Below, in pieces: positions 301 to 5,068 of a DNA stretch of 5,068 nucleotides; position 1 is the stretch's first letter; the number at the start of each line of letters is the position of its first letter. The notes under the pieces were generated by a model that saw nothing but the letters and a program-made list of their open reading frames with translations, made no database searches and had not been told where the DNA came from. The DNA is from a virus (lineage: Duplodnaviria > Heunggongvirae > Uroviricota > Caudoviricetes). The position numbers were made by a program, and so were the translations under genes. The stretch lies in IMG/VR virus record IMGVR_UViG_2671180254_000011; one strand, given 5' to 3'.

Positions 301-410
301 ACCGAAGTGGTAAAGAAGATAATAAAGAATAATATTTAGGGTTATAGGTCTTAGCCCATTTTAAATGGAAGGCAGACATGCAGCCATGCATACTTCGCAT
401 GGCAACATAA

Positions 411-752
411 TTATTTAGACAAACTATCTAATTTTTGCGTCGCTTTTTGTGTTAGGTCGCTGTAACTGATAAACCCTACGTTAGCACCTACAATTAACAC
501 TAAGAACACTAAGCTGCATATGGATAGAGTGGCAGATTTATGCTTATGGAAAACAAAATATGCTACTATTGCACTTAATATGAAGGAAATGAATAGAAAT
601 ATAGATGTTGATGTTTTTAGATATTTTTCAGGAAATAATGGGTGAGCAATAATGTATACAAGATTAAGTAGTATATAAATTGCTACCGGAATGAAAATCA
701 TGCTCCAGTGTGTATCTTTTTTGGGAGGGATTGGCTGCAAATAATCAGACAC
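411..752 (-). CDS. hypothetical small integral membrane protein (113 aa, three predicted transmembrane segments); function unknown
   Basis: 114-codon open frame in very AT-rich DNA, where stop codons are frequent by chance. Three hydrophobic stretches: WSMIFIPVAIYILLNLVYIIAHPLF, SIFLFISFILSAIVAYFVF, LSICSLVFLVLIVGANVGFI. Same strand as, and 82 bp downstream of, the 835-1212 ORF. Start is ambiguous: GTG at 752 or in-frame ATG at 701, neither with a strong Shine-Dalgarno. Confidence 0.55.
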   Translation of the reverse strand: MSDYLQPIPPKKDTHWSMIFIPVAIYILLNLVYIIAHPLFPEKYLKTSTSIFLFISFILSAIVAYFVFHKHKSATLSICSLVFLVLIVGANVGFISYSDLTQKATQKLDSLSK

Positions 753-834
753 CGTTTTTCCATCAGTTTCAAGAAGAATTACTAGATCTCTTACTTCACC
801 ACTGACTTGAGTGCATCCTTAGTAGTAATGTTAA

Positions 835-1212
835 TCATTTTTTCCCTCCAAATACGATGCCCTCTACGTCTTTGGAAGCTTTTTGTGATGACCACTCCTC
901 TGAATCAGGTGATTTAATTAAAAATATTGTATCTCCATCAAAAATCGTATTTGTTCCGTAAAAATTCACATTTGATAGATCACCACCAAAAACCCTCTGC
1001 CCACTCGAGGTAATTGCCTCACCTAATTTAGTAAAATTACCAGCAATAGATGATTTTCTTTTTCCACTTCTATTCAAAGTGGCTTTAATTACACCACCAC
1101 CATCCTTAGAGTTAAATAATTGAATGTCCACTCCAGCAGTTGGTTGTATATATTTTGAAAGCTCTTTCTTGAACTTGTTAATATATTTATCTTTGTTTTC
1201 TTTGTTGGTCAT
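835..1212 (-). CDS. hypothetical soluble protein (125 aa), lysine-rich N-terminus, glycine-rich core; function unknown
   Basis: 126-codon open frame in AT-rich DNA. No hydrophobic signal peptide or transmembrane segment. First gene of an apparent two-gene minus-strand unit. I do not recognise the sequence (MTNKENKDKYINKFKKELSKY...GIVFGGKK). Confidence 0.55.
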   Translation of the reverse strand: MTNKENKDKYINKFKKELSKYIQPTAGVDIQLFNSKDGGGVIKATLNRSGKRKSSIAGNFTKLGEAITSSGQRVFGGDLSNVNFYGTNTIFDGDTIFLIKSPDSEEWSSQKASKDVEGIVFGGKK

Positions 1213-1389: not shown

Positions 1390-1480
1390 ACCACAATCTG
1401 AACTCATCACCTTGTCACAGATGCAGAAATGCACCTGCGATTTTCTGCATTCTGCGGTTTCCGTTAGGGAGGCCGTATGA
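1385..1480 (+). CDS. small ORF (31 aa, MRPQSELITLSQMQKCTCDFLHSAVSVREAV), positionally equivalent to the small ylcH-type gene preceding ybcN in DLP12-like prophages
   Basis: ATG at 1385 preceded by AAGGGGA with 5-nt spacing. Its stop TGA (1478-1480) overlaps the ybcN ATG (1477-1479) as ATGA, suggesting translational coupling. Below the ORF-track length cutoff; identity not verified. Confidence 0.3.
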   Translation: MRPQSELITLSQMQKCTCDFLHSAVSVREAV

Positions 1481-1932
1481 CTCTGCCAGTAGACGGCATC
1501 AAACTCCATCGCGGTAACTTCGCGGCCATCGGCCAGCAGATTCAGCCATTGCTGGATGCCGGGCAATGCTTACGCCTGCAGGTTAAGCCGTGGCGCGAGA
1601 AGCGCAGCCTGTCGCAGAACGCGCTCAGCCACATGTGGTACACGGAGATCAGCGAATATCTCATCGCCCGCGGCAAGACCTTCGCTACGCCTGAGTGGGT
1701 CAAAGACGCGATGAAGCACACCTATCTCGGCTACGAAAGCAAAGACCGTGTAGATGTCGTGTCCGGCGAGGTCACCACCGTCCAATCCCTCCGCCATACG
1801 TCAGAGCTGGAAACCGGCGAGATGTACATCTTCCTGTGCAAAGTCGAAGCCTGGGCGATGAATATCGGCTGCCACCTGACAATTCCGCAGAGCTGTGAAT
1901 ACCAGCAGCTGCGCGATAAGCAGGAGGCGTAA
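1477..1932 (+). CDS. ybcN: NinB/Orf-family recombination mediator (DLP12 YbcN-like, 151 aa)
   Basis: 151-aa ORF with AGGGAGG Shine-Dalgarno 4 nt upstream. The segment RSLSQNALSHMWYTEI resembles the conserved RSL-QN region of lambda NinB/Orf. Length and gene order (before ninE, ybcO, rusA) match the DLP12 nin region as I recall it. Confidence 0.8.
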   Translation: MTLPVDGIKLHRGNFAAIGQQIQPLLDAGQCLRLQVKPWREKRSLSQNALSHMWYTEISEYLIARGKTFATPEWVKDAMKHTYLGYESKDRVDVVSGEVTTVQSLRHTSELETGEMYIFLCKVEAWAMNIGCHLTIPQSCEYQQLRDKQEA

Positions 1933-2102
1933 TGGCTACACCGCTTATTCGTGTCATGAACGGGCACATCTACAGAGTATCAAATCGTCGTAAGCGTAAG
2001 CCTGAGCTGAAGCCATCCGAAATACCAACACTGCTCGGATATACCGCTAGCCTGGTTGATAAAAAATGGTTGCGACTGGCAGCAAGGAGGAATCATGGCT
2101 GA
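1932..2102 (+). CDS. ninE: NinE-family protein (56 aa)
   Basis: Manual translation from ATG 1932: MATPLIRVMNGHIYRVSNRRKRKPELKPSEIPTLLGYTASLVDKKWLRLAARRNHG, stop TGA 2100-2102. AGGAGG 4 nt upstream. Start overlaps the ybcN stop (TAATG). Matches DLP12 NinE in length and basic character. Absent from the ORF track only because of size. Confidence 0.75.
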   Translation: MATPLIRVMNGHIYRVSNRRKRKPELKPSEIPTLLGYTASLVDKKWLRLAARRNHG

Positions 2103-3492: not shown

Positions 3493-4575
3493 TTAGAACT
3501 GGTAAACCATACCTACAGCAACGATATCATCGGTAGCAACGCCAGATGCTTTCGTGAAATCGCTCTTATCAATCAGGTTGATTTTGTAATCAACAAAAGT
3601 GGACATATTTTTGTTGAAGTAATAGGTTGCACCTACATCAATATATTCAACCAGGTCCTGATCACCCCACGCACCCAAGTCTTTTCCTTTAGATTGCAGG
3701 TAAGCAACGGACGGACGCAGACCGAAGTCGAACTGATATTGTGCAACTACTTCGAAGTTTTGTGCTTTGTTGGCAATATGGTTATTACCAAAAACAGTCA
3801 TGTTCTGGGTTTCAGAATAGGTGGTAGCCAGATAGATGTTGTTCGCATCATATTTCAGACCAGCTGCCCATACTTCAGCATTTTGACCAGATGCATTCAG
3901 GCTGTTGTTACCGTAGATAACCTGATTATTAGTGCGGTCAGATTTAGCATAGGTTGCACCTACACCGAATCCTTCATACTCATAAGTAGTGGAGAAACCG
4001 AAACCATCACCATTAGCTTCAGTTACGTCAGTGCGGTCATTTTTACCCTGATACTGAGCAGCAAAGTTCAGACCATCAACCAGACCAAAGAAGTCGTTGT
4101 TACGATAAGTTGCAACACCAGTGGTGCGACCAGTCATGAACACATCTGTTTGAGTCCAAGTGTCACCACCGAATTCTGGCAGGACGTCAGTCCACGCACC
4201 GATGTCGTATGCTACACCGTAGTTACGGCCGTAATCGATGGAGCCGTAGTCACCGAATTTCAGGCCAGCGAAGGCAAGACGGGTTTTATCTTTGGAGGAA
4301 CCTTGAGATTCAGCGCGGTTGCCTTTGAATTCATATTCCCACTGACCGAAACCAGTCAGTTGATCGTTGATTTGGGTTTCACCTTTGAAGCCAAGACGGG
4401 CATAAGTAGTATCACCATCATCTGCATCATTAGAGGAGAAGTAGTGCTTAGCATTAACTTTCCCGTACAGATCCAGCTTGTTACTGTCTTTATTATAAAT
4501 TTCAGCTGCCTGAGCAGACATCGCCATCAGTACTGATGCAGCTACAGCAGAAATTGCCACTGTTAATTTTTTCAT
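3493..4575 (-). CDS. nmpC: outer-membrane general porin of the OmpC/OmpF/PhoE family, prophage-encoded NmpC/Lc type (360 aa precursor with signal peptide)
   Basis: Start assigned to ATG 4575 ([23 protein letters not shown] then [17 protein letters not shown]...), a typical signal peptide with AQA-A cleavage motif. Porin hallmarks are present: [58 protein letters not shown]-terminal VYQF. The 20-codon N-terminal extension in the ORF track (to 4635) is rejected. Confidence 0.9.
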
Positions 4576-4965: not shown

Positions 4966-5068
4966 GGTAATGACTCCAACTTATTGATAGTGTTTTATGT
5001 TCAGATAATGCCCGATGACTTTGTCATGCAGCTCCACCGATTTTGAGAACGACAGCGACTTCCGTCCC
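4966..5068 (-). mobile_element. IS1 right end (right inverted repeat and adjacent 3' region), element continuing beyond the window end
   Basis: 4966-4988 reads ggtaatgactccaacttattgat, the IS1 right inverted repeat as recalled. The following about 80 nt (gtgttttatgttcagataatgcccgatgactttgtcatgcagctccaccgattttgagaacgacagcgacttccgtccc) match the complement of the IS1 3' region, so the IS1 body including insAB lies to the right on the minus strand. Confidence 0.9.

Follow-up and report, generated by a model that had tools for sequence, protein, structure and literature searches.

A conserved pair of genes for a soluble and a membrane protein, decayed in an IS1-bounded lambdoid prophage remnant, and its possible role as a phage-defence or toxin-like module

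The stretch of DNA analysed here (hereafter the window: 5,068 nucleotides of IMG/VR record IMGVR_UViG_2671180254_000011, numbered from its first letter) comes from a lambdoid prophage that resembles DLP12 and is of the E. coli/Shigella type. Between the end of replication gene P and the nin region a composition profile revealed a block of low GC content, which is transcribed opposite to both P and ybcN. This block holds an intact gene, here called gene A, and a broken copy of a second gene, gene B. The features of the window are listed below.

1–308: IS1 sequence at the left end
about 303–332: replication gene P, cut off
333–1350: low-GC cassette (32–36% GC against 51–59% in the flanks)
383–403, minus strand: 7-bp inverted repeat GCCATGC N7 GCATGGC, 8 nt past the stop of gene B, with no T run
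411–813, minus strand: rest of gene B, read in its native frame and covering the last part of the cytoplasmic N-terminal segment, three transmembrane (TM) helices and the C-terminal tail
791–838, minus strand: 5' stub of gene B (ATG at 838–836, eight native codons, an out-of-frame tail, TAA at 793–791)
814–815, minus strand: 1-nt deletion in gene B (GATGGC to GATGC, by alignment to E. coli A7)
838–835, minus strand: ATGA overlap of the gene A stop and the gene B start
844–849, minus strand: Shine-Dalgarno sequence GGAGGG of gene B, inside the last codons of gene A (Gly-Gly-Lys-Lys) and followed by AAAAA and the ATG of B
835–1212, minus strand: gene A, 125 intact codons from ATG to TGA in the list of open reading frames, coding for a soluble basic protein
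1213–1476: divergent intergenic region between gene A (minus strand) and ybcN/ninB (plus strand)
1254–1249, minus strand: −10-like TATACT, 37 nt before the ATG of gene A
1422–1457, plus strand: two terminator-like hairpins with T-rich tails, just upstream of ybcN/ninB
1477–1932, plus strand: ybcN/ninB
1932–2102, plus strand: ninE
ybcO and rusA, plus strand: partly hidden by a run of N at 2159–2356
ylcG, then antiterminator gene quuD (to 3304), plus strand
3493–4575, minus strand: ompC/nmpC-like porin gene, following quuD and opposed to it, as in DLP12
4966–5068: IS1 sequence at the right end

Since IS1 sequence lies at both ends of the window, the prophage segment is an IS1-bounded remnant. 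The left IS1 piece yields an InsA-like peptide on translation and matches IS1A in two pieces, and it appears from this sequence to carry an internal deletion. The 3' end of P at about 332 was placed by mapping from E. coli A7. The run of 198 N hides where ybcO ends and rusA starts, and these two genes cannot be judged in the window. The porin gene is annotated as 'porin OmpC' in E. coli A7; its open reading frame as listed runs to an upstream ATG (380 aa), and the signal peptide begins with MKKLTV. A search against Rfam gave no match anywhere in the window.

The gene A protein is rich in lysine (13.6%), glycine (12.0%) and serine (10.4%), with a pI of 9.5 and a GRAVY value of −0.62. The highest Kyte-Doolittle mean over 19 residues was 0.43, and the protein is therefore without a TM segment or a signal-peptide-like stretch. 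A first-pass annotation, made from the letters of the DNA, had described a basic, lysine- and glycine-rich soluble protein of 125 aa at 835–1212 with no TM segment or signal peptide. We located this frame on the minus strand with all of the quoted peptides in it, and the composition, charge and hydropathy values agree with that description. The Shine-Dalgarno sequence of gene A is likewise as weak as had been claimed, with only TGGA readable in the sequence about 10 nt before the ATG. At the protein level gene A equals WP_000182282.1 of E. coli A7, from which it differs by two nucleotides, both synonymous, and this protein is an annotated CDS ('hypothetical protein') in complete E. coli genomes. 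At about 34% GC, where about 7% of random codons are stops, the chance of an open frame of 125 codons is about 1e-4, and a comparison with enterobacterial alleles 76% identical at the protein level gave a dN/dS of 0.08. Given this low chance, the low dN/dS and the full-length homologues across many phyla described below, gene A is, on sequence evidence, a real and selected gene.

Gene A belongs to PHROG 18061 (E 9.3e-85 over residues 1–125 of 125) which, like PHROG 16940 (the match of gene B, see below), is annotated as 'unknown function'. While a word-indexed search returned close enterobacterial relatives only, an exhaustive search with an HMM built from the alignment of these relatives, run against 1.84 billion representatives of 50% identity clusters at E <= 1e-3, showed a family of 111 clusters, mostly of 120–135 aa and matching end to end. 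In an alignment of 74 of these sequences K100 was invariant and Y10, G39, F84, G86, T87, W107 and D115 were nearly so. Pfam-A gave no match for A and no significant match for any of the 74 family members. Among the 5027 models of PADLOC-DB v2.0 there were no families matching A and only isolated weak matches to the 74 members. A sequence profile search of the PDB reached chance level only, with Spc97 (E 0.02) and FtsA (E 0.7), and tblastn against 50,697 GenBank phage records found no match to A. The accessions WP_000182282 and WP_000608370 (the latter for gene B) were not found in the literature searched, and they were absent from those DefensePredictor supplements that are available as text. 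The earlier verdict of a protein with no recognisable family thus stands for Pfam, PADLOC and the PDB and falls with the membership in PHROG 18061 and in the 111-cluster family.

Profile searches and structure prediction had both been proposed as checks in the first-pass annotation; run on A, they gave no named family and a confident AlphaFold2 model. The model computed from the 74-sequence alignment has a pLDDT of 92.6 and a pTM of 0.87 and superseded a poor one (pLDDT 58.5) made from nine close sequences. It comprises a helix (residues 4–19), three strands (27–35, 40–47 and 52–60), a second helix (63–70), an ordered and conserved loop (71–86), a hairpin (87–100) and C-terminal helices (104–121). 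The Gly/Ser/Thr/Asn-rich core noted earlier is not a low-complexity linker in this model, being a well-folded and highly conserved part of a compact domain. A comparison of the model with solved structures in the PDB gave no significant match, and the fold as modelled is without detectable relatives.

Some members or apparent members of the family deserve separate mention. One 447-aa protein (P0087), whose open reading frame is present in two samples, carries an HNH nuclease (Pfam E 1e-12) behind its A domain; this is the one instance of such a fusion, and its contig measures 1.7 kb. A 127-aa protein (P0013) on a 1145-nt ENA contig has an unrelated pentapeptide-repeat N-terminus with Pfam matches, which gives way exactly at DLSNVNF to the 50 C-terminal residues of A. 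It is most likely a chimera created in assembly, where the two sequences have a short word in common. A pentapeptide-repeat reading of A, prompted by this protein and by DLSNVNF/GTNTIF, was rejected because the AlphaFold2 model shows a beta-hairpin there and not a solenoid. The six weak matches between a 1251-aa repeat protein (P0113) and the A family were taken as a false positive.

In E. coli A7, where the pair spans 1326158–1326960, gene B is intact and encodes 142 aa (WP_000608370.1), and its ATG overlaps the TGA of gene A in an ATGA. The strong Shine-Dalgarno sequence of B occupies the last codons of A, which accounts for the invariant C-terminal GGKK in the enterobacterial clade of A (G122, G123 and K124 are invariant there). 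Judging from this Shine-Dalgarno sequence and the ATGA overlap, A and B are translationally coupled. Proteins of the B family are 125–145 aa long and begin with an acidic segment of about 35–45 aa (consensus MKxGxxEGTPEEvrdLFxNhGLnLxDYxExP), followed by three hydrophobic helices, of which the last two are linked by a basic Q-x-R-F-K loop, and by a short polar tail. In intact B the TM windows fall at about residues 45–66, 78–98 and 105–127, and an N-in/C-out topology is predicted by the positive-inside rule. Gene B showed a dN/dS of 0.08–0.13 and is, like A, a real gene under purifying selection. Together with 18 relatives it reached only Pfam matches below the gathering score, to generic multi-TM families, its best E-value in PADLOC-DB v2.0 was 0.17 with no match for 19 members of the family, and source records of the B family held no informative names. 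The inverted repeat past the stop of B may mark where the A–B transcript ends or may stabilise it.

In the window the 1-nt deletion at about 814 shifts the frame of gene B and cuts its product to 15 aa, which by translation and alignment to E. coli A7 reads MINITTKDALKSVVK up to the stop. The rest of the gene matches PHROG 16940 with an E-value of 2.2e-74, over profile positions 30–142 of 142 only. A downstream membrane protein of 113 aa had been proposed as the partner of gene A in the first-pass annotation; that open reading frame (411–752, with a GTG at 752) is part of the frameshifted 142-aa gene, here a pseudogene. The tie between gene A and a downstream membrane protein is itself borne out, as A and B occur together in groups as far apart as Enterobacteriaceae, Bacteroidota, Nitrospira and cyanobacteria. 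The extra G is present in every one of the 46 complete E. coli genomes with this locus, and the deletion allele was seen elsewhere only in an IMG/VR record nearly identical to the whole window (L047). With B truncated to 15 aa and the prophage an IS1-bounded remnant, the copy of the module in the window is, as read from its frames, decayed and non-functional, and gene A is an orphan here.

Gene A and a gene B of 142 aa were adjacent in all seven enterobacterial prophage loci examined, which represent six distinct prophage backgrounds differing in their replication modules (O/P, DnaB-type and DnaC-type) and in their nin genes. In each of the seven the pair occupies the interval that separates the replication genes from ninB/ybcN/DUF1367 and is antisense to the early-right operon, and the junction is an ATGA overlap in six and an abutting stop and start in the seventh (L002). 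Distant relatives of A (30–40% identity, more than 10 phyla) were collected with a degenerate-pattern scan derived from a 14-sequence sub-alignment, taking one genome per species. Among the resulting 22 loci, a homologous B was encoded directly downstream of A in 19, usually with a 4-nt overlap, and the three exceptions comprised two degraded loci and one at a contig edge. Their hosts belonged to Deltaproteobacteria, Nitrospira, Synechococcus, Acidobacteria, Alpha-, Beta- and Gammaproteobacteria, Myxococcales, Saganbacteria, Gemmatimonadota and Bacteroidota. Within E. coli the locus is rare, with 46 of 5426 complete genomes (0.85%) carrying it.

Decay of the module was found in both directions. 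In a 92%-identical allele (L055, 6372–6810) an independent 1-nt insertion shifts the frame of B at about codon 55 and leaves A intact; the 73-aa protein that results has also been recorded from E. coli, as a 'hypothetical protein' (P0211). B has thus been inactivated twice independently beside an intact A, by the deletion shared by the window and its near-identical record and by this insertion. The reverse is seen in E. coli CV839-06 (L042) and in a further locus (L060), where a copy of IS1A interrupts gene A behind about codon 49 and B is intact; this allele leaves an annotated stub of 49 aa.

Among 101 neighbouring open reading frames at 19 loci we found no recurrent neighbour of A–B, and many of the neighbours were housekeeping genes; the pair is therefore self-contained. 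Outside the enterobacteria, most loci have housekeeping genes around them and show no obvious mobile element. Other copies have settings related to mobility or restriction. In an uncultured Bacteroides sp. (L031, 2969–8919) the pair sits between type III mod and res on the same strand, and in a proteobacterial MAG (L028, 1884–5740) it directly follows type I hsdM-hsdS on the same strand, and no hsdR can be seen in the 10 kb of that locus. The closest relative from outside the enterobacteria (42% identity, L039) is encoded on a small mobilisable plasmid with Rep, MobC and relaxase genes. An integrative and conjugative element (ICE) carries a version of the pair in which A is extended at its N-terminus and the three-TM B is likewise extended; its neighbours there code for a caspase-like peptidase and for a protein with DUF4238 (L040). 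Further copies occur in siphovirus-like prophages (L011/L012 and L061). Phage lambda has ren in the slot that A–B occupies, and in one enterobacterial prophage (L002, 5665–11261) the slot between P and ninB also holds colicin-like and immunity-like genes as well as DndB-like and HNH genes, which suggests that it is a hotspot for accessory or conflict genes. PADLOC matches among the pooled neighbours were PDC-S05, PDC-S22 and SoFic. The overall signal of defence genes near A–B is a raw one from a handful of loci.

The divergent intergenic region at 1213–1476 would have to hold the cassette's own promoter. A consensus scan upstream of A found no convincing sigma-70 promoter on the minus strand, and the only candidate is the −10-like TATACT, which matches the position of TGATATAGT in relatives and might be a promoter element of A. 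On the other strand, the two hairpins at 1422–1457 sit at the position of lambda tR2, and antiterminated rightward transcription would pass through the A–B cassette in the antisense direction.

Genes A and B form an uncharacterised two-gene cassette, which probably acts as a phage-defence or toxin-like module. As a more specific reading we tentatively favour a mobile conflict module of the abortive-infection or exclusion type, to which we give somewhat less than an even chance. In this module A would be the sensor or regulator and would act via the N-terminal cytoplasmic segment of B, and B would be a membrane-damaging effector. Both proteins would be expressed in the lysogen from the prophage's own divergent promoter; A would bind B physically and would either sense a phage cue or restrain B through its cytoplasmic segment, and B, once active, would be toxic by damaging or permeabilising the membrane and might thereby protect against phage. 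A number of observations point towards a conflict module, namely the patchy distribution, the foreign GC content and the accessory slot antisense in prophages, as well as the residence on a plasmid, on an ICE and in restriction-modification operons, the translational coupling and the polytopic membrane protein. The repeated inactivation of B beside an intact A and the published prophage defence pairs of a soluble and a small membrane protein point the same way. The A–HNH fusion, which looks like an effector swap, adds to this and is compatible with a sensor or regulator role of A. Against a conflict module speak the absence of a PADLOC match, the many housekeeping contexts, the lack of a clear promoter, the IS1-disrupted copies of A beside an intact B in CV839-06 and L060, and the finding that no phage record encodes A.

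Much of this evidence could also be read as a toxin–antitoxin (TA) or addiction module with no dedicated phage sensor, in which B is a membrane toxin and A an antitoxin made first and in excess, and which through post-segregational killing would secure the maintenance of prophages, plasmids and islands. In its gene order and 4-nt overlap the pair follows the usual pattern of type II TA operons, its carriers include a small mobilisable plasmid and an ICE, stand-alone pairs are scattered among housekeeping genes, and the two independent losses of B with A intact follow the direction of decay expected for a toxin. We nevertheless consider such a module unlikely. In CV839-06 and L060 it is A that is disrupted by IS1 while B is intact, which argues against a constitutively toxic B restrained only by A unless the insertion is polar on B. 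In addition, the weak Shine-Dalgarno sequence of A and the strong one of B are the opposite of the usual antitoxin excess, and A lacks a DNA-binding domain for autoregulation. A TA module would overlap heavily with the conflict module that we favour, as many TA modules act in defence.

Two further explanations do without killing of the carrier or without conflict altogether, and to both we would assign only a slim chance. Small membrane proteins are typical of exclusion functions, such as T4 Imm and P22 SieA, and B in the inner membrane with A on its cytoplasmic face might accordingly block DNA entry or an early membrane step in a non-lethal superinfection exclusion, a role that would fit a small inner-membrane protein encoded in a prophage-borne, antisense and moron-like pair. 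To our knowledge, the described entry blockers are usually single membrane proteins with no conserved cytoplasmic partner, unlike A–B. The pair is moreover found far from prophages, inside restriction-modification operons and beside housekeeping genes, and the A–HNH fusion points to an intracellular effector logic. The remaining explanation places A–B in the physiology or life cycle of its carrier, either as an accessory pair for membrane stress or transport or as a regulator of prophage lysis or replication timing. The many loci among housekeeping genes (fabH/plsX, thiC, tRNA synthetase, EPSP synthase), the lack of a match in the defence database and the purely sub-threshold similarity of B to generic multi-TM families are in line with such a role. 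It is hard to reconcile with the patchy, accessory distribution (0.85% of complete E. coli genomes; 111 clusters among the 1.84 billion representatives), with the foreign GC content and the missing conserved neighbour, with a position outside the lysis cassette, which sits elsewhere in the same prophages, and with the repeated loss of the module by mutation.

Taking the conflict module with A as sensor or regulator and B as effector one step further, A–B might represent an unrecognised pan-bacterial anti-phage system. A would then be a small cytoplasmic sensor of a new class, with its own fold, gating interchangeable effectors (usually a membrane-disrupting protein with three TM helices and occasionally a fused HNH nuclease), and the system would move among prophage slots, plasmids, ICEs and restriction-modification operons. 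This broader proposal is speculative, and we regard it as possible rather than probable. If A–B is a defence or toxin module, two families with no relatives in Pfam, PADLOC or the PDB would join the few systems known to combine a soluble sensor with a small membrane effector, and the minimal design of about 125 aa plus about 140 aa would lend itself to dissection in E. coli. In lambdoid prophages, the slot that separates the replication genes from ninB would likewise be marked as an exchange site for accessory conflict genes. In the window itself gene A is by these analyses a real gene, but the A–B module is dead.

Several known systems pair a small soluble with a small membrane protein, and A–B resembles them to different degrees. 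A–B shares with SpoIISA/SpoIISB of B. subtilis and GhoT/GhoS of E. coli the form of a compact, self-contained operon for two such proteins. In membrane-toxin TA pairs the small membrane protein damages the membrane when uncontrolled, and SpoIISA has three TM helices and a cytoplasmic part to which its antitoxin binds. The compact, bicistronic and coupled arrangement of type II-like TA operons was found in A–B as well, with ATGA overlaps in enterobacterial and most distant loci. We also considered B as a class I (three-TM) holin and rejected this on the position of the gene, which is antisense between the replication and nin genes, on the presence of essD/rrrD-type holin/endolysin genes elsewhere in the same prophages and on the occurrence of B outside phages.

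Adjacent prophage genes with products of this kind have been described for the mycobacteriophages Butters and Sbash. Butters gp30/gp31 comprise a protein located in the cytoplasm and a small one in the membrane, which interact with each other (PMC7542560), and Sbash gp30/gp31 are expressed in the lysogen and provide a phage-specific defence that was proposed to act via loss of membrane potential (PMC6426596). The likeness to A–B is drawn from these descriptions, and whereas the hosts of Sbash and Butters are Actinobacteria, A–B is distributed across many Gram-negative phyla and beyond prophages.

The other close counterpart is lambda RexA/RexB, also an accessory two-gene operon of a prophage, which encodes a soluble cytoplasmic protein together with a small inner-membrane protein that is polytopic and about 140 aa long (RexB, 144 aa). 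RexA/RexB is expressed in the lysogen, as A–B would be. RexB has four TM helices, whereas B has three and a conserved cytoplasmic N-terminal segment. Alignment of the family profiles with hhalign led us to reject homology of B to RexB (probability 0.2%) and of A to RexA (0.03%) or to Ren (0.2%). RexA binds DNA (PMC11077077) and, with 279 aa against the 125 aa of A, has an unrelated fold. The locations differ as well, with rexAB in the immunity region of lambda and A–B in the slot that lambda uses for ren. By analogy, A–B would be most like the RexAB-type pairs in its working logic, rather than a member of their family.
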